A DNA stretch of 41,774 nt from Eubacteriales bacterium (lineage in GTDB: Bacteria > Bacillota > Clostridia > Oscillospirales > QAKW01), in NCBI GenBank assembly GCA_045586045.1, contig JAZMZQ010000191.1, positions 1 to 41,774 of the forward strand. The letters run 5' to 3'. How positions within the stretch are numbered: position 1 is the first letter of the stretch; each line of letters begins with the position of its first letter. Position numbers and translations under genes: made by a program. The notes beneath the pieces were generated by a model. It saw only the letters and a program-made list of their open reading frames with translations, ran no database searches and had not been told where the DNA came from. Positions 3 through 12,779 of this stretch are shown one piece after another.

Positions 3-188
3 GCCTGCAAGCTGGGCCGCAGCGCCAACGCCCACATCCACCTGGGCATCTGCGGCGAGCACGGCGGCGAGCCCACCAGCGTGGAGTTCTGCCACCGCAC
101 GGGCCTGGACTACGTGTCCTGCTCCCCCTTCCGCGTTCCCATCGCCCGTCTGGCCGCCGCCCAGGCTGCTATTAAGGAATCTAAGTAA
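3..188 (+). CDS. ppdK: pyruvate, phosphate dikinase, C-terminal fragment (5' end lies outside the window)
   Basis: Frame is open from the window edge and translates to ...[49 protein letters not shown], the conserved PPDK tail. GC3 is very high, unlike the next 2 kb. Confidence 0.85.
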
Positions 189-210
189 TTAGATTTATAA
201 AGCAAAACTT

Positions 211-245
211 ATCGCCTTGCCGAGAAATCGGCAGGGCGATTTTTA
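211..245 (+). terminator. rho-independent terminator of ppdK
   Basis: ATCGCCTTGCCGA-GAAA-TCGGCAGGGCGAT forms a 13 bp stem with one G.U pair and a GAAA loop, followed by TTTT. Confidence 0.8.
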
Positions 246-254
246 TTAAACATA

Positions 255-283
255 TTGTGCTTATGGCTAATATATGACATAAT
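255..283 (+). promoter_or_regulatory. sigma-A type promoter of cassette 1
   Basis: TTGTGC, 17 nt spacer, TGaCATAAT (extended -10). Confidence 0.5.
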
Positions 284-299
284 GAACCAAATAGAATTT

Positions 300-539
300 A
301 TGGTGGTGCGAAGGTTGAATTCACACAAAAGGAAAATGATTGCTCCGATTATCATTACAGTCATTATGATACTGTATTATATTGCGTATTTCGGATTTTT
401 GATTTCTTTACTTGGTGGTTTTTGGAAATATGTTTTGGGTATTATCCCGCTTGTTTTTTCGGGAATTATGATTTATGTCTGCATAGAAAGAATAAATGAA
501 ATAAAGAAAGGTGAAGAAGATGATATTAGTAAATACTGA
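300..539 (+). CDS. small two-TM membrane protein, unknown function
   Basis: ORF 255..539. ATG codons at 300 and 336 lie downstream of the predicted promoter; the ATG at 336 has a weak AAGGA. There are two hydrophobic helices and an acidic tail. The 3' end overlaps the next gene by 20 nt. The start is uncertain. Confidence 0.5.
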   Translation: MVVRRLNSHKRKMIAPIIITVIMILYYIAYFGFLISLLGGFWKYVLGIIPLVFSGIMIYVCIERINEIKKGEEDDISKY

Positions 540-837
540 TTACATTAGTGGAAAAGAACTGGAAACCTTATCTCTTGTAAAAGGAAGTACAATCCAGTCT
601 AAAAACATTGGTAAAGATATAGCGCAAAGTTTTAAAACTTTGGTAGGCGGAGAACTCAAAGCTTATAATGAAATGATGAATGAAGCACGCGCTCTTGCAA
701 CAAAAAGAATGGTTGCGGAAGCAGAAGAATTAGGTGCAGACGCAGTCATTAACATCCGCTATGCATCTTCTGCGGTTATGCAGGGTGCCGCAGAAGTAAT
801 TGTATACGGAACAGCCGTTAAGTTTATAAATAAGTAA
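520..837 (+). CDS. YbjQ/UPF0145 (DUF74) family protein
   Basis: MILVNTDYISGKELE...GADAVINIRYASSAVMQGAAEVIVYGTAVKF matches the YbjQ-family pattern as I recall it. ATG at 520 is preceded by AAAGGTGAAG. Confidence 0.8.
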   Translation: MILVNTDYISGKELETLSLVKGSTIQSKNIGKDIAQSFKTLVGGELKAYNEMMNEARALATKRMVAEAEELGADAVINIRYASSAVMQGAAEVIVYGTAVKFINK

Positions 838-941
838 TTTCCCTCTTTTGCGTATTGCAGGACAGGCTGCTATCAAAGAAAGCAAGTAATTGCTGACTTT
901 ATAAAACAATTTATCCGCCCGAGAAATCGGGCGGATTTTTG
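838..941 (+). repeat. diverged copy B of the ppdK tail plus terminator
   Basis: Begins TTTCCCTCTTTTGCG directly after the YbjQ stop and reads [16 protein letters not shown]. This is followed by ATCCGCCCGA-GAAA-TCGGGCGGAT and TTTT (913..940). Confidence 0.8.
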
Positions 942-949
942 TATATGTA

Positions 950-978
950 TTGAATTGTTGGAATATAAATGGTATAAT
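950..978 (+). promoter_or_regulatory. sigma-A type promoter of cassette 2
   Basis: TTGAAT (950-955), 17 nt spacer, TGgTATAAT (970-978). Near consensus with an extended -10. Confidence 0.65.
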
Positions 979-1016
979 TCAACAGAAAATTAAAAAATCT
1001 GATAAAGAGGATGTTT

Positions 1017-2045
1017 ATGAAGTTTGTGAAATTACTTCCAGGAATAATATTATCTGTGGGAGTTGCAGTTTTTGCATGTTGGATTGAAAGTTTGATGCCC
1101 ATTCATTTGATTGGTGCTGCCGTAATCGCTATGTTTATAGGCATGCTCATCAATCACTTTCTAAAAAATACTAATATTTTTTCGACAGGACTTAAGTTTA
1201 CCTCCAAGAAAATATTGAAATTCGCCATTATATTGCTTGGCTTATCACTTAATATCACAACTATTCTAAAGGTGGGCAAAATGTCTCTCACGGTTATGAT
1301 ATTCACTTTGCTCACTTGTTTTGGCGGCGGATTTTTCATAGGGAAGGCATTAGGACTCAATTGGAAACTTTCCAACCTTATATCTGCTGGTACCGGTATT
1401 TGTGGTGGTTCTGCTATTGCTGCAATTGCACCGACGATTGACGCAGATGATAGTGATGTCGCTTATGCGATGTCTGCAACCTTTCTTTTTGACATGGCGA
1501 TGATTGTACTTTTCCCAATTATGGGCACAGCACTCGGTATGACCGACCAAGCATTCGGTATATGGGCAGGTACTGCAGTGAATGATACATCCTCCGTTGT
1601 TGCAACGGGCTATGCATTTTCTGAAAGTGCGGGCGACTTTGCGACAATGGTTAAACTCACAAGAACACTTGCTATTATTCCTACAGTGATCGTCTTTGCA
1701 TTTATTCAACTAAATATAAAACGCAAAGAGACGCTTGACAATAACCATAATGGAAGTGAACTTAAAACGAAGTTCAGTATCACAAAAATATTTCCTTGGT
1801 TTATTCTTGGATTCCTTGCAATGTCGGTTGTGGCAAGTGTATTTTCTATTCCTGCAGAAATTGTATCGGGAACGAAAACAATAAGTAAGTTCTTAATGGT
1901 ATGTGCCTTGGCAGCTATAGGGCTTAATACATCTTTCTCAAGTATGAAAAAAGCAGGTGTTCGCCCGATGATACATGGCTTTATTATCTCCGCATTGGTT
2001 GTTATAGTGGCGCTTGTTGTTGAAATGGCAATGGGAATTGTTTGA
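1017..2045 (+). CDS. YeiH/UPF0324 family putative sulfate-exporter-type membrane protein
   Basis: Polytopic membrane protein of about 342 aa with the GTGICGGSAIAAIAP motif typical of the YeiH family. GAGG lies 6 nt upstream of the ATG at 1017 (ORF track starts at 1011). Confidence 0.75.
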   Translation: MKFVKLLPGIILSVGVAVFACWIESLMPIHLIGAAVIAMFIGMLINHFLKNTNIFSTGLKFTSKKILKFAIILLGLSLNITTILKVGKMSLTVMIFTLLTCFGGGFFIGKALGLNWKLSNLISAGTGICGGSAIAAIAPTIDADDSDVAYAMSATFLFDMAMIVLFPIMGTALGMTDQAFGIWAGTAVNDTSSVVATGYAFSESAGDFATMVKLTRTLAIIPTVIVFAFIQLNIKRKETLDNNHNGSELKTKFSITKIFPWFILGFLAMSVVASVFSIPAEIVSGTKTISKFLMVCALAAIGLNTSFSSMKKAGVRPMIHGFIISALVVIVALVVEMAMGIV

Positions 2046-2057
2046 AAGGTTTGATAA

Positions 2058-2161
2058 TTTCCCTCTTTTGCGGATAGCACCACAGGCCGCAATTAAAGAA
2101 TCTAAGTAATTAGATTGATCAAGTAAAACGAATCCCCTCGGAGCAATCCGAGGGGATTTTT
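2058..2161 (+). repeat. diverged copy C of the ppdK tail plus terminator
   Basis: Begins TTTCCCTCTTTTGCG after the YeiH-like stop and reads [16 protein letters not shown]. This is followed by AATCCCCTCGGA-GCAA-TCCGAGGGGATT and TTT (2131..2161). Confidence 0.8.
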
Positions 2162-2216
2162 CATTACGCCTGATCAAAAAATCTGTATCTCAAAACCACT
2201 TTGTATCTTAACTCCC

Positions 2217-2244
2217 AAGGGGCGGTAAAAATTTACCGCCCCTT
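2217..2244 (-). terminator. hairpin at the end of the minus-strand dlt-like operon (probable terminator)
   Basis: AAGGGGCGGTAAA / TTTACCGCCCCTT inverted repeat lies 9 nt past the lipoprotein stop. There is no clean T-run. Confidence 0.4.
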
Positions 2245-2252
2245 AATTGAAA

Positions 2253-2750
2253 TTATTCTACAATCGCTTCGTATTGGACCGAGCTAACCGCGCCGTCCGT
2301 CAGGATGATGACAAGCTTGGAATCACCTTTTTTATAGGTATAAGAGTTCTCGCCGTTGAAGCCTTCTGCTCCGTAGGCTTTTTCTACCTCTTCTTTGGTA
2401 GAGCCGATATAGATTCCTTCTTCTGTGGAGACGGTATCGTCTGCAAACCAAAGGGTATAGACATAATCCTTATCATTTTCGGGATAGGTGGTCAGATAAA
2501 AGCCGCCGTAATAATAGGTTTTATCCAGCCCTTCAAAAGCGCAACTGGCCTCTTCCGTATAGGAAACCGGATCGCCCAGTGCGGAAAGGATGGCTGAGGC
2601 CTCTTGATTCATGGCAATCTTCGTCTCTTTTGCGGTGAAGGTATAGCCGAGATCCTTAGGCTCGGAAGAGCCGCCCTCTTCCTTTTCGCCACAGCCTGCA
2701 AGTGTAAAAAGCAGGAGCAACGCAAGCAATAAGCTGATGATTCTTTTCAT
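2253..2750 (-). CDS. lipoprotein, unknown function (last gene of the operon)
   Basis: Lipobox LFTLAGC at the N-terminus. RBS GGAGGAAAAG. Starts 14 nt after the upstream gene. Confidence 0.8.
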   Translation of the reverse strand: MKRIISLLLALLLLFTLAGCGEKEEGGSSEPKDLGYTFTAKETKIAMNQEASAILSALGDPVSYTEEASCAFEGLDKTYYYGGFYLTTYPENDKDYVYTLWFADDTVSTEEGIYIGSTKEEVEKAYGAEGFNGENSYTYKKGDSKLVIILTDGAVSSVQYEAIVE

Positions 2751-2764
2751 TTTCTTTTCCTCCG

Positions 2765-3814
2765 TTAGTTCTGACCCTTTCGGTCATAATAGATTTGGCA
2801 TTTTTTCTCCCAAGCAGCGCTGATCTTTTGATCGGCTCTGCGGTCGGGGAGATCGCAATCCTCTTTGAGAATTTTTCCGAAATAGCGGGAAAGCTTTTCG
2901 GCACCCTTTACATTGAGATGAAGCCCGCGATCATAAGTGTCGGTAGACCAATCGATGCCGATCTCCTCTTGGCAATCCAGCAAATTATAATAGCGAAGAT
3001 CATTTTCTTCGGCATAAGCCTCAATCTGCTCATCCCATTGATCCCACCAGATCGGCGAGAGAGAGGGCGCCTTGATCAGCACAAGCTCTACCCCTTTTTC
3101 TTTGCAAAGGGCAGTCATTTTATCGAGATAATACCAGCTATTCTCCCCAAAACGATAGTCTGCCAAGGGGCGCTCGGCATATTCATCGGTATAGGGCTTT
3201 ACGCCGGTCTGCATGAGATATCCGTTATCGGAAATCTGCTTTTTATGGAAAAGATAGGTGAAATCTTCTTTTGTAAGCTGAGACCAGCGGGAATGATAGC
3301 GAAGGAAGGGGAATAAATAGGTAAACATACTTTCCCGCTCTTTTTCCTCCTCTGTCATGGAAGCCTTTATGGAATTCCATTTGGAGGCAGACCATTTCAT
3401 TCCGTCGAGGGTCATGCGGTTATAGGCCTCCCGCTGCGAAGCTTTTCCGGTGCTTGCAGGGGTATCGTATTTCATGGAAAGGACATTAAACACCATGACC
3501 TTCGGAGTCTCATATTTAAGGGTTTCCTCCATCAGATAATAGGACTGCCAGATCATCTGCTGGGCGCTGCCTCTAATATATGAGGGAATCCCATACTCTT
3601 CATATAAGGTGATGGGCGAGAAATTTTCATAGACCTCGCAATCGCCCACAAAGACAACATCGTTGCCTCCTGCATTGGCATAATATTCGCCAATCAGCGC
3701 CCCTTCCGGAGAGGTCTCCATATATTTAGGGCTGAGCAATGCCTGCAAAAAGATCAGGATTGCAAGGCAGAGAGGCAATACAATGAAATAAAGCTTTGAA
3801 ATTTTCTTTTTCAC
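2765..3814 (-). CDS. membrane-anchored SGNH/DltD-AlgX-like accessory protein partnering the MBOAT
   Basis: GTG start preceded by AGGAGG. N-terminal signal anchor. VVFVGDCEVY resembles block I and YDRGLHLNVKG resembles block V. The gene sits immediately downstream of the MBOAT gene, as dltD does after dltB. The functional assignment is by context. Confidence 0.65.
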   Translation of the reverse strand: MKKKISKLYFIVLPLCLAILIFLQALLSPKYMETSPEGALIGEYYANAGGNDVVFVGDCEVYENFSPITLYEEYGIPSYIRGSAQQMIWQSYYLMEETLKYETPKVMVFNVLSMKYDTPASTGKASQREAYNRMTLDGMKWSASKWNSIKASMTEEEKERESMFTYLFPFLRYHSRWSQLTKEDFTYLFHKKQISDNGYLMQTGVKPYTDEYAERPLADYRFGENSWYYLDKMTALCKEKGVELVLIKAPSLSPIWWDQWDEQIEAYAEENDLRYYNLLDCQEEIGIDWSTDTYDRGLHLNVKGAEKLSRYFGKILKEDCDLPDRRADQKISAAWEKKCQIYYDRKGQN

Positions 3815-3823
3815 GGCTGCCTC

Positions 3824-5389
3824 CTAAAATTGATTATAGATAAAATTGCTTGCATTATAGCCGATGCCGTAGGTCCCCATCAGGAGGACAATCAGCAGCA
3901 AGGCAAAAAGCACAATCGGACGGATGATGGGATGGGCTTGCAGCCATTCTCTGACACTCCCCCGCTTCTCCTGATAAAGGCTTACAGCAAACATCAAGAG
4001 GATTCCGCCGAGCAGGATCAGATAATCTTCTAAGGAAAGGCCCAGCTTCATTAAAGTGCCGTCCCATAAAATGTGGAAATTAAATTCGGTAAAAAGCGAG
4101 CCGATGCGACTGAAATAATCCCCCACATTGGGGAAAAGATCGCAAATGCGGATCAGATTCATCAGGAAAAACATCCGGAGCATTTCAAATCCGCCATACC
4201 ATTTTTTCTCCTTCAGATGGAAGCGGCCATGGAATTTGGCATAAAGGGGCATACATTCTTCGGATAATACGATGAAGAAGCAATTCAGCAATCCCCAAAG
4301 GATAAAATTCGGAGTGATGCCATGCCAAATGCCGGTGCAGCACCATGTGATGATGGAGGCCACATAGACCGGAAGGCGCTTGCCGAAGTTTCCGAATTTT
4401 TTGCGGGCGGATTTGCTCAAGGAAAGCATCGGTTTGCAGACAGAGAGGGGATAGAAGATATAATCCTTCATCCAAACGCTCAAGGTGATATGCCATCTGC
4501 GCCAATATTCGGCAATGTTTTTTGAAAAATAGGGCCGAATAAAGTTTTCGGGGAGTTTGATACCGAGGGCCTGAGAAAGGCCGATGGTGATATCGATTCC
4601 GCCGGTAAAATCTCCATAGATCTGAACGGCATAGAAGATGGTCAGCATCAAAAAAGAAATGCCGGTATATTCCGCTCCTCTGAGGGCGATGACGCCGGCT
4701 GCAATGCGATCGGCAATGACCAGCTTCTTAAAATAGCCCCAAAGCACCCGCTGCAGACCGAAAGAGACTTCCCTTTTATCAAAGGAATGGGGCCCGTAAA
4801 GCTGCGGGGCGACCTGCCCGAATTTGCTGATCGGGCCTTGCACAAGCTGAGGAAAAAAGGATACAAATAAAGCAAAGCGGAAAATATTTTTTTCGGGCTT
4901 TGCAATCCCGCGATAGACATCGACTACATACCCTAAACTCTGGAACATATAAAAAGAGATCCCCAGAGGAAGGGCAAGGGTCAAAAAGCCTAAAGGCCCG
5001 CCCTTTGCCATGGTGCGGAAGGGCTCTGCAAGGCAACCCTTGCAGATAAAGAGGATGATAAAATTGAAAATCAGGCATAAAATAATAAAGACGCGATTTT
5101 TTGCCTTGATTTTCCCTTTATATTCTTTGCGCTCCTCTCGGGAAAGGGTGGCTTTATTTTCGGCAAGATAAGCATCCTGCTTGGCAATATTTTTACCCAT
5201 AAGAAGGGCGGCGGCATAGGTGGAAAGGGTAGTGAATAAAATGAAGCCCAAATATTCCGCACCGGCCCAAAGGTAAAAGACATAGCTGAAGATCAGCAGC
5301 GTGATCCATTGCACCTTTTTGGGGACAAGATAATAAACCACCAAAAGAAGGGCGGCAAACAGCACAAAGCTTACAGAGGTAAATTGCAT
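3824..5389 (-). CDS. MBOAT family O-acyltransferase (DltB/AlgI-like)
   Basis: 521 aa polytopic protein containing WRRWHITLSVWMKDYIFYPL and GIWHG, which are MBOAT hallmark motifs. Its start overlaps the carrier-protein stop (TAATG). Confidence 0.85.
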   Translation of the reverse strand: MQFTSVSFVLFAALLLVVYYLVPKKVQWITLLIFSYVFYLWAGAEYLGFILFTTLSTYAAALLMGKNIAKQDAYLAENKATLSREERKEYKGKIKAKNRVFIILCLIFNFIILFICKGCLAEPFRTMAKGGPLGFLTLALPLGISFYMFQSLGYVVDVYRGIAKPEKNIFRFALFVSFFPQLVQGPISKFGQVAPQLYGPHSFDKREVSFGLQRVLWGYFKKLVIADRIAAGVIALRGAEYTGISFLMLTIFYAVQIYGDFTGGIDITIGLSQALGIKLPENFIRPYFSKNIAEYWRRWHITLSVWMKDYIFYPLSVCKPMLSLSKSARKKFGNFGKRLPVYVASIITWCCTGIWHGITPNFILWGLLNCFFIVLSEECMPLYAKFHGRFHLKEKKWYGGFEMLRMFFLMNLIRICDLFPNVGDYFSRIGSLFTEFNFHILWDGTLMKLGLSLEDYLILLGGILLMFAVSLYQEKRGSVREWLQAHPIIRPIVLFALLLIVLLMGTYGIGYNASNFIYNQF

Positions 5390-5616
5390 TATTCTTCCAT
5401 CAGCCTTTCAATAAGCGCCCAAAGAGCTTTGGCGGAATTGAAGTTTTCCGGCACAAGCTCTTCGGCAGGGATCGCCACATCAAATTCAGAATCGATTTCT
5501 GCTACCAAGGTAACGATATCAAAGGAATCCAAGATCTTTCCGTCGATCAGATCGGTAGCGGTCTCAAAATCCACATCGGGATGAAGCTCTTCGAGTATTT
5601 CAATCAGTTGTTCCAT
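5389..5616 (-). CDS. D-alanyl-carrier-protein-like acyl/aminoacyl carrier protein
   Basis: 75 aa acidic protein with the phosphopantetheine-site motif GKILDSFDIVTLV. Lies 2 nt after the adenylating enzyme gene. Confidence 0.8.
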   Translation of the reverse strand: MEQLIEILEELHPDVDFETATDLIDGKILDSFDIVTLVAEIDSEFDVAIPAEELVPENFNSAKALWALIERLMEE

Positions 5617-5618
5617 AA

Positions 5619-7133
5619 TTATTCTCCTTTATACTTTTGCAAAAGACCTTTGCGGTCTATTTTACCGTTGGGGGTGAAAGGCATGGCCTCCAGCTGCTCA
5701 ATTTTATTGGGCACCATATAGCGGGGCAGCTTTTCTTTTACATAAGCGGCGATCTCTCCGGAGGGAGCCTCGCCCACATAATAAAGCACGATTTTCTTTT
5801 TCTCGTTATCAAAGATGCAGCAAGCGGTGCTGACCTGATCGTGCATATTCACAATGACCTCAATCTCGCCCAGCTCAATGCGATGGCCCATATGCTTGAT
5901 TTGATAATCCTTGCGGGACATAAAGGTCAGCTCGCCTCGATCGTTGAGCTTTCCAAGATCTCCGGTCTTATAAATCAGCTCGGGATAGAGGGAATTCAAC
6001 GGGTTTTGGACAAAGGCCTCAGCGGTTTTTTCAGGATTCTTATAATAGCCTAAGGTAAGGCGTGTCCCCCGAATGCAGATCTCGCCCTGCTCCCCTGCCT
6101 TTGCGAGCGTTCCCTCGTCGGTGAGAAGCAGAATCTCGGTATTGCTGAAGGGGCGGCCGATGGGAAGCGTCTCCTCTTCGGAGAATTCACGGTCCACTTC
6201 ATAATAGCAGCAGATTCCGGTGGTTTCGGTAGGCCCGTAGAGGTTGATAAACCGCGCATTCGGCAGATGGGCCTTCCAGATATTGAATTGCTTGATGGGG
6301 AATACCTCGCTGGCAAAGGCAATGGTATGCAGATAGCGAGGCACCACCTTATCAAAGGTGCGGAAAGCGGAGATCATCGTCAGCGCAGAGACCACCCAGC
6401 AGAGGGTGTTGATTTTATATTCATTTAAGAATTCCACCAGCTTAATGGGGAACATAAACAACTGCTTGGGGATCAGATAGGTGGTAGCCCCGTATTTCAA
6501 GGTGGGGATGATTTCCTTAAGGCAGGCATCAAAATAAAGGGGCGTTTGGTTGCCGAAAACGGAATCCTCATTGAATTTCAGCACCTTGCAAAGCTCTTCG
6601 ATATAATCGATCACAGAGCGGTGGCAAGCCATCACCCCCTTGGGGACGCCGGTGGAGCCGGAGGTGAAGACAATGTAGATCGGATCAATATCCAGCTGCT
6701 TTGCGCGAATCTCGCCAAGGAGCTGCTCGTCCGTCTCGGTATGGCAGATGTCCTCATATTTGAAGATCTCACCCTTGAAATCAAATTCTTTTGCCAAAAG
6801 ATACGTGTCCTCATCGCAGATCATCGCACCCTCATCAAGGCTGCCCAGAATCAGCTCGATGCGATGGCGGGGCATCTCATCGTCCAAAGGAATATAATAA
6901 TTGCCTCCGTAAACCGCACCGAAAAAGGCGGCGATGGTTTTGGGATGCTTCTTCATAAAGACAGAAACAGGCCGCTTATAATATCCCTTTTTGCCGAGAA
7001 AAGAGCCGATGGCTCGCGCTTGGCAGAAGGTTTGGCGGAAGGTGAGAGAATCTGCCTCGTTGGCAAAAGCCACCTTATCGGGCAGGCGGGTAACCGTCTG
7101 TTCAAGATATTCTAAAATGTTTGTCATAATCAT
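5619..7133 (-). CDS. DltA-like amino acid--carrier protein ligase (stand-alone adenylation domain)
   Basis: AMP-binding core motifs FTSGSTGVPKG, LYGPTETT, YKTGD and PNGKIDRK are present. Length is 504 aa. ATGA overlap with the racemase stop. Confidence 0.85.
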   Translation of the reverse strand: MIMTNILEYLEQTVTRLPDKVAFANEADSLTFRQTFCQARAIGSFLGKKGYYKRPVSVFMKKHPKTIAAFFGAVYGGNYYIPLDDEMPRHRIELILGSLDEGAMICDEDTYLLAKEFDFKGEIFKYEDICHTETDEQLLGEIRAKQLDIDPIYIVFTSGSTGVPKGVMACHRSVIDYIEELCKVLKFNEDSVFGNQTPLYFDACLKEIIPTLKYGATTYLIPKQLFMFPIKLVEFLNEYKINTLCWVVSALTMISAFRTFDKVVPRYLHTIAFASEVFPIKQFNIWKAHLPNARFINLYGPTETTGICCYYEVDREFSEEETLPIGRPFSNTEILLLTDEGTLAKAGEQGEICIRGTRLTLGYYKNPEKTAEAFVQNPLNSLYPELIYKTGDLGKLNDRGELTFMSRKDYQIKHMGHRIELGEIEVIVNMHDQVSTACCIFDNEKKKIVLYYVGEAPSGEIAAYVKEKLPRYMVPNKIEQLEAMPFTPNGKIDRKGLLQKYKGE

Positions 7134-11648: not shown

Positions 11649-12779
11649 TTATACGTGTTTGCTTATGGGGATCAGCTCATAAGCCTTTTGCCCGATGCCG
11701 ATCTTTTCGGCATGCTCCACGCAGGTGCGCCAGTTGGTATCGGGATGATTGAGGCGGAAATGATCCCCCTCGGCGGGTGCAGTTTCCTTGAGGCTGTTTT
11801 CACCCAAGCGGCTGTTGGTAAGAATCGGCTGCGCGTTGCAAAGCTCGGCGCAGGCCACATCCAGCGCCACCGGATCAAAAGAGGCTAACATTCCCACGTT
11901 GGGAATAATGGCGGCATCATTTTCTGCGTGGCAATCGCAATTGGGGGAAACATCGCAGATCAAGGAGATATGAAAATGAGGCCGCCCATCCAATACCGCC
12001 TTGGTATATTCGGCAATCTTGCAATTGAGCAGGTCATTGGAGCTTCCGTTGGTGGCGTGGATGGCATCGGTGGGGCAGAGGGCAAGGCATCTGCCGCAGC
12101 CCACGCATTTTTGATGATCGATGGTGGCCTTGCCCCCATCAAAGGCGGGTGCATCGTGGGCGCAGATTTTGGCGCAGGCCTTGCAGCCGATGCATCGGCT
12201 TTGGTTCACTTGAGGCTTGCCGTCGTTATGCATCTCCATCTTGCCTGCTCTGGAGCCGCATCCCATGCCGATGTTCTTGAGCGCACCGCCGAAGCCGGTG
12301 CACTCATGGCCCTTAAAATGGTTGAGAGAGATGAAGATATCCGCATCCATAACGGCGCGGCCGATCTTGGCTTCTTTGATATATTCACCGTCGATCGGCA
12401 CTAAGGCCTCGTCGGTCCCCTTCAGCCCATCTCCGATCAGCACATGGCAGCCGGTGGAAAGGGGTGAAAACCCGTTGGCATAGGCGGTCTCCAAATGATC
12501 TAAGGCATTTTTGCGGCTGCCTACATAGAGGGTATTGCAATCGGTGAGGAAGGGCTTGCCGCCCAGCTCTTTGATAAGATCAGCAACCACCCGCGCATAG
12601 TTGGGGCGCAGATAGGCCAAATTGCCGTATTCCCCGAAATGAATCTTAATTGCGGCATACTTATTGTTGAAATCAATGTCTTTTATACCCGCTGTAATGC
12701 AAAGGCGCTTGAGCTTTTGCAAGAGGTTTTCCTTAGGGCTTGCCCGAAAATCGGTAAAATATACTTTTGAAGGGTTCAT
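11649..12779 (-). CDS. DUF362 domain protein with 2x[4Fe-4S] ferredoxin insert
   Basis: CIGCKACAKIC and CVGCGRCLALCP ferredoxin motifs lie inside a DUF362-type scaffold (N-terminus MNPSKVYFTDFR...). Confidence 0.8.
   Translation of the reverse strand: MNPSKVYFTDFRASPKENLLQKLKRLCITAGIKDIDFNNKYAAIKIHFGEYGNLAYLRPNYARVVADLIKELGGKPFLTDCNTLYVGSRKNALDHLETAYANGFSPLSTGCHVLIGDGLKGTDEALVPIDGEYIKEAKIGRAVMDADIFISLNHFKGHECTGFGGALKNIGMGCGSRAGKMEMHNDGKPQVNQSRCIGCKACAKICAHDAPAFDGGKATIDHQKCVGCGRCLALCPTDAIHATNGSSNDLLNCKIAEYTKAVLDGRPHFHISLICDVSPNCDCHAENDAAIIPNVGMLASFDPVALDVACAELCNAQPILTNSRLGENSLKETAPAEGDHFRLNHPDTNWRTCVEHAEKIGIGQKAYELIPISKHV

Follow-up and report, generated by a model that had tools for sequence, protein, structure and literature searches.

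The DNA analysed here, referred to as the window, is a 41,774-nt contig (JAZMZQ010000191.1, assembly GCA_045586045.1) of an Eubacteriales bacterium from the Oscillospirales. It opens inside the 3' end of ppdK, and directly behind this gene lie two small gene cassettes, each closed by a direct repeat (the module) that reads as a ppdK tail with its terminator. We propose, at a probability of roughly 60%, that these cassettes belong to a system resembling the staphylococcal cassette chromosome (SCC) and psi-SCC elements, in which miniature cassettes lacking a recombinase are, we infer, mobilized in trans by large serine recombinases (LSRs), with homologous recombination also shuffling the modules. 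The repeats and the cassette architecture, the horizontal spread and polymorphism of the cassettes, and LSR elements at the same core sequence are all observed.

A preliminary description of the window, made from the sequence alone, had reported that the ppdK tail with its terminator occurs there in three direct copies. These are confirmed at about 157–245 (copy A), 835–941 (copy B) and 2055–2161 (copy C), and direct reading shows that B and C do continue in frame as ppdK-like tails. The terminator-like hairpins are likewise present, at 211–240 (GAAA loop), 913–936 (GAAA loop) and 2131–2158 (GCAA loop), with stems that differ from each other, are fully paired and are followed by T-runs. Copies B and C are 82% identical over 57 nt and copies A and C 84% over 56 nt, mean column identity among the three is 74%, and the exact GAATCTAAGTAATTAGATT block noted earlier is indeed common to A and C. 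The resemblance is not due to chance: 283 occurrences of this module were counted across related loci.

A pattern scan of contigs representing one genome per species returned at least 119 stretches, 109 of them with true modules. Among the matches listed, the hosts of true modules are nearly all Oscillospirales metagenome-assembled genomes (MAGs; Acutalibacteraceae, Oscillospiraceae, Faecousia and Avispirillum) from the guts of ruminants and other animals. The 179 distinct modules yield a 47-nt consensus, TAA-TTTCCCTCTTTTGC-nG-ATAGCA-sCA-CAGGCTGC-n-AT-n-AA-r-GA, followed by a hairpin, with the junction at sCA / CAGGCTGCnATCAArGA. The module ends each of about 160 cassettes across 109 genome loci (again among the matches listed), with up to 5 full modules per locus, and a hairpin with T-run is predicted after 117 of 146 modules. 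In about 55 loci a full ppdK gene immediately precedes the array in the same orientation, and tile or contig ends truncate most of the others.

The two halves of the module differ in character. Positions 0–13 are nearly invariant, lack codon periodicity and are non-coding; a three-base period is confined to the sequence right of CAGGC, where variation falls at third-codon positions as expected for sequence derived from coding ppdK tails. Host-type sites match the right part of the module only, and aligning the stretches that follow CAGGC identifies them as different ppdK alleles (KESK*, KDMK*, KEMK* and KG*), as the tail-mimic proposal of the preliminary description had anticipated. Dyad symmetry of the module is strongest about the CA at positions 25/26, with 9 of 11 pairs in the consensus and a mean of 6.75, versus 5.24 at the next best centre, and this axis coincides exactly with the start of identity between host and cassette. 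Attachment (att) sites of serine recombinases typically show dyad symmetry (PMC6222049). Left-arm and tail haplotypes show no linkage; thus, the two halves reassort freely across the core.

The 161 inter-module segments range from 260 to 4861 bp (median about 0.8 kb) at 26–47% GC, and the main open reading frame (ORF) is co-oriented with ppdK in 153 of 160 cassettes. The module's own TAA serves as the ORF stop in 54 of 144 cases. In 143 of the 144 a distance of 24 nt or more separates the stop from the core C, which puts the stop at the start of the 25-nt left arm or 1 nt within it (the single other case is 8 nt away), so that the ORF is kept out of the left arm. The cargo comprises 117 protein families in 160 cassettes among the matches listed and is accessory in character, including LRR_5 proteins, zinc ribbons, acyltransferases, ToxN/AbiQ, TipAS, VanW and many proteins of unknown function. 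No recombinase is found in the 25 most frequent of the 73 matched Pfam families. A defence-island reading was considered and rejected, as few cargo proteins match PADLOC models.

Comparisons between loci provide the evidence for mobility. The exact YbjQ protein of the first cassette is present in 710 collection blocks, and ten contigs encoding the identical protein differ in their neighbours and array contents. YbjQ stands behind ppdK in six of the ten loci shown, those with enough upstream sequence, in different genomes and with different small neighbour genes; at the start of the remaining four stands an LSR fragment, a partial ORF or a MerR-family gene. Throughout these loci every cassette ends in a module, a ppdK-like tail, a hairpin and a T-run, and wherever the YbjQ cassette comes next, the sequence of site A is identical from TAATTAGATT on. 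The YbjQ cassette shows 98.6–99.3% nucleotide identity across hosts whose ppdK 3' ends are only 66–84% identical, which shows that the cassettes are horizontally mobile. Two metagenome contigs (L214 and L215) match the window's host flank 2215–3194 at 98.5% identity, the conserved flank starting at 2215; in both, YbjQ is followed directly by one module and the second, YeiH-encoding cassette is absent. The right half of this single module matches copy C of the window (93.5% over 108 nt) beside the same host flank, and the tail and hairpin of copy C are therefore the host-anchored distal end. Finally, the cassette module is absent from 79 of 80 related ppdK loci in an unbiased metagenome sample (ppdK 73–93% amino acid identity), and the genes upstream of ppdK differ between genomes. 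The presence/absence polymorphism that the preliminary description proposed to look for is thus found in the differing YbjQ arrays, in L214 and L215 and in the module-free ppdK loci. Its central idea, serial insertion at the ppdK 3' end of cassettes that each bring a ppdK-tail mimic, at a hotspot with no recombinase in cis, is supported.

Selection on the cargo is suggested by one further comparison. Between L002 (9644–10344) and the window (162–863) the YbjQ protein is 100% identical with cassette DNA only about 95% identical, which suggests that this small protein is under purifying selection. Many synonymous changes fall in the last 45 nt of the YbjQ gene, and the overlapping upstream membrane ORF is also conserved.

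Several additional features of the module were noted. A small hairpin (window 179–196, 880–893 and 2100–2117; tails of L001–L129) places the ppdK stop codon in its 4-nt loop and may act at the RNA level or as a recombinase site. Within it, a serine codon switch between TCT and AGC is compensated downstream by a switch between TTAGA and TTGCT; stems of at least 5 bp occur in 113 of 239 tails versus 2 of 956 slid controls. The module at L009 1571–1600 carries an internal deletion, apparently between short GCTG repeats, that fuses TTTTGC to TGCTATCAAGG and removes the inner left arm and the CAGGC core. At seven half-module sites (L064, L087, L085, L084, L088, L028 and L061), arrays follow a decayed tail-like stretch, TTAAGGACAGnTTTAAAATTnTTCTCATCGCTCGATGTACTGCACCACAGGC, rather than ppdK, with ordinary host-like genes upstream. 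This stretch is intermediate between a true ppdK tail and a cassette left arm and may be a secondary or pseudo attachment site.

Large serine recombinases at the CAGGC core

LSR genes of three clades are located at the CAGGC core in 15 array loci other than the window, and these enzymes are the candidate trans-acting recombinase. They share a YARVST motif and the PF00239 and PF07508 domains. Two of the clades end directly on the half-module and have their own left arms within the gene's 3' end (GATGCTATACTGCA/CAGGC and CATTGCAACG/CAGGC). The third occurs in units closed by the canonical TTTCCCTCTTTTGC arm, and in L031 an arm variant lies 150 nt past the LSR stop; type-3 LSR units were seen within 10-kb flanks, and their left ends lie beyond. 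One locus, L216, holds a complete 8-kb element in the ppdK tail, in the order ppdK, attL, ParA/ParB/RepA_N/radical-SAM genes, a gene for a 738-aa LSR, and attR. Its attL (4237–4259) and attR (12200–12221) share CTGCACAGGCTGC, and the LSR stop overlaps attR. The attL junction, GCTGCA/CAGGCTGCTATCAAATATGGGGAGGACTAA, gives ppdK the new tail IKYGED*, and the attR junction reads CTGCA/CAGGCTGCAATAAAGG. A left end of the same type is present in L130 and L213. Relatives of these LSRs at 79% identity (L219–L221) have no module nearby, which indicates that LSR target choice is clade-specific. Against the CcrB, CcrC and CcrA models the site LSRs score 64–136 bits, compared to curated cut-offs of 700–900.

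Some LSR loci show unusual arrangements. In L055, L210, L211 and L212 a 270–283-aa serine recombinase with Resolvase and Recombinase domains and no C-terminal part is encoded directly upstream of a 617–618-aa LSR. The smaller gene overlaps the LSR start, an arrangement that recalls ccrA-ccrB, and neighbouring genes encode DNA methylases, AbiEii, TnpV, DUF6809 and PemK. At L159 (1410–3116) an LSR homologue, 39–41% identical, lies on the opposite strand right after ppdK (tail IKQR*) with its 3' end facing the ppdK stop, and it may belong to an element that uses the ppdK site in another arrangement.

Site LSR genes are very often located at contig ends or on 2–3 kb contigs (the P0121 cluster; L007, L008, L010, L026 and L117), and one LSR cluster of 757 member sequences has a longest contig of 3.3 kb. 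This placement indicates that the elements break short-read assemblies, as has been reported for ccrAB in enterococci (PMC6222049).

A proposed mechanism and its alternatives

In the mechanism that we favour, LSR elements of a clade of gut Oscillospirales would use the last eight codons of ppdK as their chromosomal attachment site. The window's two units would be miniature elements without a recombinase, each with a replacement ppdK tail and terminator at its left, its own promoter and one or two genes, and, from the stop codon of the gene, a right end formed by a conserved recombinase half-site of about 25 nt (TTTCCCTCTTTTGC-nG-ATAGCA-sCA). A circular cassette with a joined site (left arm, CA, tail mimic and terminator) would undergo recombination with the ppdK tail, the exchange falling on the CA of CAGGC or close to it, whereupon ppdK would gain the cassette-borne tail and terminator and stay intact, and the previous tail would be pushed behind the cassette. 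Because both the host and the cassette right half must encode QAAIK, the two would be equivalent; the incoming half would mimic that of the host, and the new ppdK junction would again be attB-like and look like an empty site. The next cassette could then enter at the same place, the array growing from the ppdK side, and the proximal cassettes would be lost by excision whenever the ppdK junction recombined with a module inside the array. LSR-bearing elements with the same core as their target would provide the recombinase in trans. The modules, of about 100 nt, would be further reshuffled by homologous recombination or by gene conversion between them. We infer that LSRs move the small cassettes, where exactly the crossover lies, and that the site is regenerated after each insertion.

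A bolder version, which we hold only tentatively and at less than even odds, regards the system as the integron's counterpart based on a serine recombinase. Its capture platform would be the end of a highly expressed housekeeping gene, and cassettes that rebuild both tail and site would allow unlimited array growth. A single reaction between attB-like and attP-like sites would run both ways without a directionality factor, using a trans enzyme from a few autonomous elements in the community.

Several points weigh against the LSR mechanism. The 41.7-kb window holds no recombinase. No excised circle and no pair of empty and filled reads was observed, and polymorphism and horizontal transfer are indirect evidence of excision to a circle and re-integration. 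The left limit of the YbjQ cassette varies: most loci have it at the core, but in L007 it follows the stop codon and in L006 it falls within the hairpin. The inner left arm (14–24) differs among YbjQ cassettes that are 99% identical and is not homogenized within arrays, which is not what one 2-bp crossover at 25/26 would predict. Across module positions 18–39 linkage is lost over a few bases, and the L070 cassette sits between perfect 93-nt copies of an entire module, the outcome expected of Campbell-type homologous insertion or gene conversion. The variable limits, the inner-arm differences, the decay of linkage and the L070 duplicate together indicate that homologous recombination or short-tract conversion also acts. 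Crossover mapping from pairs of identical cassettes gave scattered breakpoints. Concerted evolution of the left arms is not supported (0.27 within versus 0.28 between arrays), and only tails are enriched within arrays. In addition, classical LSRs do not recombine attL-like sites, and reuse of the junction assumes that, through the shared right half, it has become the equivalent of attB. The L070 cassette (oriented 2969–3460) encodes 101 aa; its duplicate spans left arm to hairpin, with the left boundary in the T-run, and the same 101-aa cassette occurs in L107 and L043 with quite different upstream hairpins.

Could homology alone have built the arrays? The preliminary description had offered Campbell-type or homologous recombination as an alternative, and the partly mosaic junctions indicate that it does contribute. 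Accretion solely by RecA-type recombination or gene conversion, using ppdK as the left arm and the module of about 100 nt as the right arm, or by Campbell circles, with the LSRs merely sharing the hotspot, would account for the mosaic and variable left junctions, for linkage lost within a few nucleotides across the module and for the perfect 93-nt duplication around the L070 cassette. It would also fit the difference between the window and L214, which looks like a whole-array exchange bounded by the conserved distal module (YbjQ alleles 94% identical, flank 98.5%). It is a serious rival, but we consider it unlikely as the sole process. It leaves unexplained why the non-coding arm TTTCCCTCTTTTGC is near-invariant across more than 100 species while neighbouring positions vary, why the dyad axis falls on the junction and why the same left arm ends LSR-containing units. 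Nor does it explain how the first cassette entered, since the empty site offers one-sided homology, and ppdK genes only 66–84% identical between hosts of 99% identical cassettes are a poor substrate for homologous recombination.

Site-specific movement by a different trans-acting enzyme, such as a Xer- or integron-type tyrosine recombinase or a hairpin-recognizing single-strand transposase acting on GATAGCA-n8-TGCTATC as core, appears quite improbable. This 7-8-7 inverted repeat would suit a tyrosine recombinase as well as a serine one, and the window is without a recombinase of any kind. However, no tyrosine recombinase or transposase accompanies any array, the only core-adjacent recombinases are the LSRs (15 loci, three clades), the genes flanking ppdK vary between genomes, and the module shows no attC-like structure and no Rfam family match. 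An integron of the attC/IntI type is rejected on related grounds, a tyrosine recombinase being absent and the site being sequence-defined. A non-mobile origin, through ancient tandem duplications of the ppdK terminator region that became fixed and whose genes drifted to low GC, would agree with the divergence of the copies (74–84%). It is already refuted by array content that varies between genomes and within the lineage and by cassettes far more similar than the host ppdK genes, and 117 cargo families in 160 cassettes also speak against it. A diversity-generating retroelement was discarded, as the A/C mismatches (D2) hit all four bases rather than adenine specifically and the window has no reverse transcriptase. 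Searches for a known RNA family gave only sub-threshold Rfam matches (E 0.2–0.8), the module pattern has 0 matches in IMG/VR that would point to a phage-borne attP, megablast of window 135–2165 returned nothing in phage or plasmid collections, and the literature searched contains no description of a comparable ppdK-linked cassette system.

Layout of the window

Feature coordinates are collected in the table. The ppdK end in the window is 68% GC and uses GC-rich host codons as far as GCC 159–161; on direct reading the codon style changes at CAG/GCT, and the AT-rich tail QAAIKESK* begins at 162. Site A consists of the host left arm joined, at CA 162–163 of the core CAGGCTGC, to the cassette-borne tail, and according to the terminator scan and fold it contains the stop-in-loop hairpin AATCTAA-GTAA-TTAGATT (179–196), the terminator hairpin (211–240) and a T-run (241–245). 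Module B opens with the YbjQ stop TAA (835–837), followed by the left arm TTTCCCTCTTTTGCGTATTGCAGGA (838–862), the dyad centre CA (863–864), the tail QAAIKESK* (863–889), the hairpin and a T-run (937–941). Module C has the same order, with left arm 2058–2082, dyad centre CA 2083–2084, tail QAAIKESK* 2083–2109, the hairpin and a T-run, and its right half is probably the displaced original ppdK tail and terminator of the host.

Features of the window from ppdK to the end of the island
Feature	Position	Strand	Evidence or remark
ppdK 3' end, 61 codons + stop	3..188	+	translation; PF02896 PEP-utilizers_C E=5e-12; stop 186-188
Site A (attL-like)	162..245	+	partial nhmmer module match, model positions 24-47
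Cassette 1	246..837	+	34% GC; promoter-like site, small membrane ORF, YbjQ-family gene
Small membrane ORF, cassette 1	about 300/336-539	+	overlaps YbjQ gene
YbjQ_1-family gene, 105 aa	520-837	+	PF01906 E=6e-36
Module B (attR/attP-like)	835..941	+	full module match, 54 bits; repeat family D1; terminator scan
Cassette 2	942..2054	+	38% GC; YeiH gene with own promoter-like site; missing from a conspecific strain
Cons_hypoth698/YeiH membrane protein gene	1017-2045	+	PF03601 E=1.6e-78; TIGR00698
Module C	2055..2163	+	full module match, 57 bits
Perfect 13-bp inverted repeat (I10)	2217..2244	.	end of island, start of host DNA

Domain matches bear out the gene identities first assigned, namely a PEP-utilizers_C tail, YbjQ_1 and Cons_hypoth698/YeiH; exact look-up of the YeiH-like protein returned no record. 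Other details of the preliminary description require amendment. The cassettes are AT-rich as claimed, but the contrast was drawn against host DNA of 55–60% GC, which is too high: the rest of the window (2162–41774) is 50% GC and only the ppdK tail is GC-rich. Copies B and C were said to begin right after the stop codons of the cassette genes, yet B opens at the YbjQ stop itself and C opens 10 nt past the YeiH stop. Of the promoters assigned to each cassette, that of cassette 2 (TTGAAT-17-TATAAT with TG, 950–978) is found by the promoter scan, whereas the cassette 1 site (TTGTGC-17-CATAAT, 256–284) is a by-eye reading that the scan lacks. Cassette 1 does carry YbjQ but contains two overlapping ORFs, the small membrane ORF and then YbjQ. 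The reported lack of a recombinase in cis holds across the 41.7-kb window, whose proteins are of housekeeping type only.

Past the island, the inverted repeat at 2217..2244 would serve as a terminator for a convergent lipoprotein gene, 2253–2750(-). Directly beyond, an operon-like run on the minus strand (2765–7133) encodes a protein whose match to GDSL lipases is weak and sub-threshold, together with an MBOAT acyltransferase and an AMP-binding enzyme. It resembles cell-envelope acylation systems (dlt/alg-like), is host-encoded and is conserved in L214 and L215 up to 3194.

Relation to known systems

Integrons and SCC elements are the two textbook systems that stockpile mobile genes at one chromosomal site, and neither has, to our knowledge, been described from the strict anaerobes of the Clostridia that predominate in animal guts. 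The ppdK arrays may represent a third format, in which self-expressed, one-gene cassettes behind ppdK move between genera in more than 100 uncultured Oscillospirales species. The 47-nt module offers a simple sequence tag with which to harvest mobile accessory genes from gut metagenomes, and the natural pairs of LSR and att site, aimed at a conserved gene end, could aid genome engineering of anaerobes that are hard to transform. The ppdK site also provides a testable case of recombination-site regeneration through gene-tail mimicry, and the system would explain the recurrent assembly breaks behind ppdK in Oscillospirales MAGs with arrays.

Closest in logic are SCC and psi-SCC of staphylococci and the Enterococcus cassette chromosome, whose CcrAB or CcrC LSRs use an attB in the 3' end of rlmH (orfX). 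These elements integrate at the 3' end of a housekeeping gene with the frame preserved, between dyad-symmetric direct repeats of about 50 bp, and form tandem arrays that include recombinase-less members with variable cargo; their recombinase genes are often at contig ends in short-read assemblies (PMC6222049; 10.1101/336396). Dyad-symmetric direct repeats, each a copy of the target gene's end, likewise bound the ppdK cassettes, which form tandem composite arrays that are mostly recombinase-less, with LSR genes in only 15 array loci, some of them with a small serine recombinase gene before the LSR as ccrA stands before ccrB. Unlike SCC, the arrays target ppdK instead of rlmH, and their att sequence bears no relation to TATCATAA. 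The site LSRs belong to the LSR superfamily only (PF00239 and PF07508) and are distant relatives of Ccr. The ppdK units are 20–100 times smaller (median about 0.8 kb, one ORF) and have their own promoter and terminator, the repeat holds a full replacement tail, stop-in-loop hairpin and terminator, and the hosts are strictly anaerobic Oscillospirales. Compared with LSR integrative elements, the two cassettes of the window do not encode the LSR, which is found instead in neighbouring units of other arrays; a short identical attL/attR core beside an LSR gene is present in L216.

The likeness to integrons lies in mostly single-ORF cassettes of 0.3–1.5 kb in one orientation, a site that abuts the ORF stop, huge cargo diversity of largely unknown function, and proposed insertion at the platform-proximal end. 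Unlike integrons, no ORF of the window matches Phage_integrase and no IntI or other tyrosine recombinase lies beside the platform. The module is conserved in primary sequence, with no GTTRRRY in its consensus, as judged without a dedicated attC model. The cassettes have their own promoter-like sites and terminators, whereas integron cassettes are promoterless and depend on a platform promoter. The platform is the end of a housekeeping gene, and the candidate enzyme is a serine recombinase in trans.

Two further families offer partial parallels. Clostridial elements of the Tn4451/Tn4453 type excise as circles and reinsert through the LSR TnpX without a separate directionality factor, and TnpV and DUF6809 genes occur in LSR units of the ppdK arrays; TnpX elements have many loosely defined insertion sites and are not known to form cassette arrays behind one gene or to carry a gene-tail mimic. 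ICESt1, ICESt3 and the related CIMEs at the fda 3' end of Streptococcus thermophilus show tandem accretion and cis-mobilization of recombinase-less, att-bounded elements. They resemble the ppdK cassettes in tandem accretion of recombinase-less units at the 3' end of a glycolysis-related gene, but rely on a tyrosine integrase, span kilobases to tens of kilobases and are not known to have a conserved mini-cassette format. The ppdK arrays are thus best filed with the serine-recombinase cassette-chromosome systems, as a form with integron-like miniaturization that is set apart by its target gene and recombinase family.

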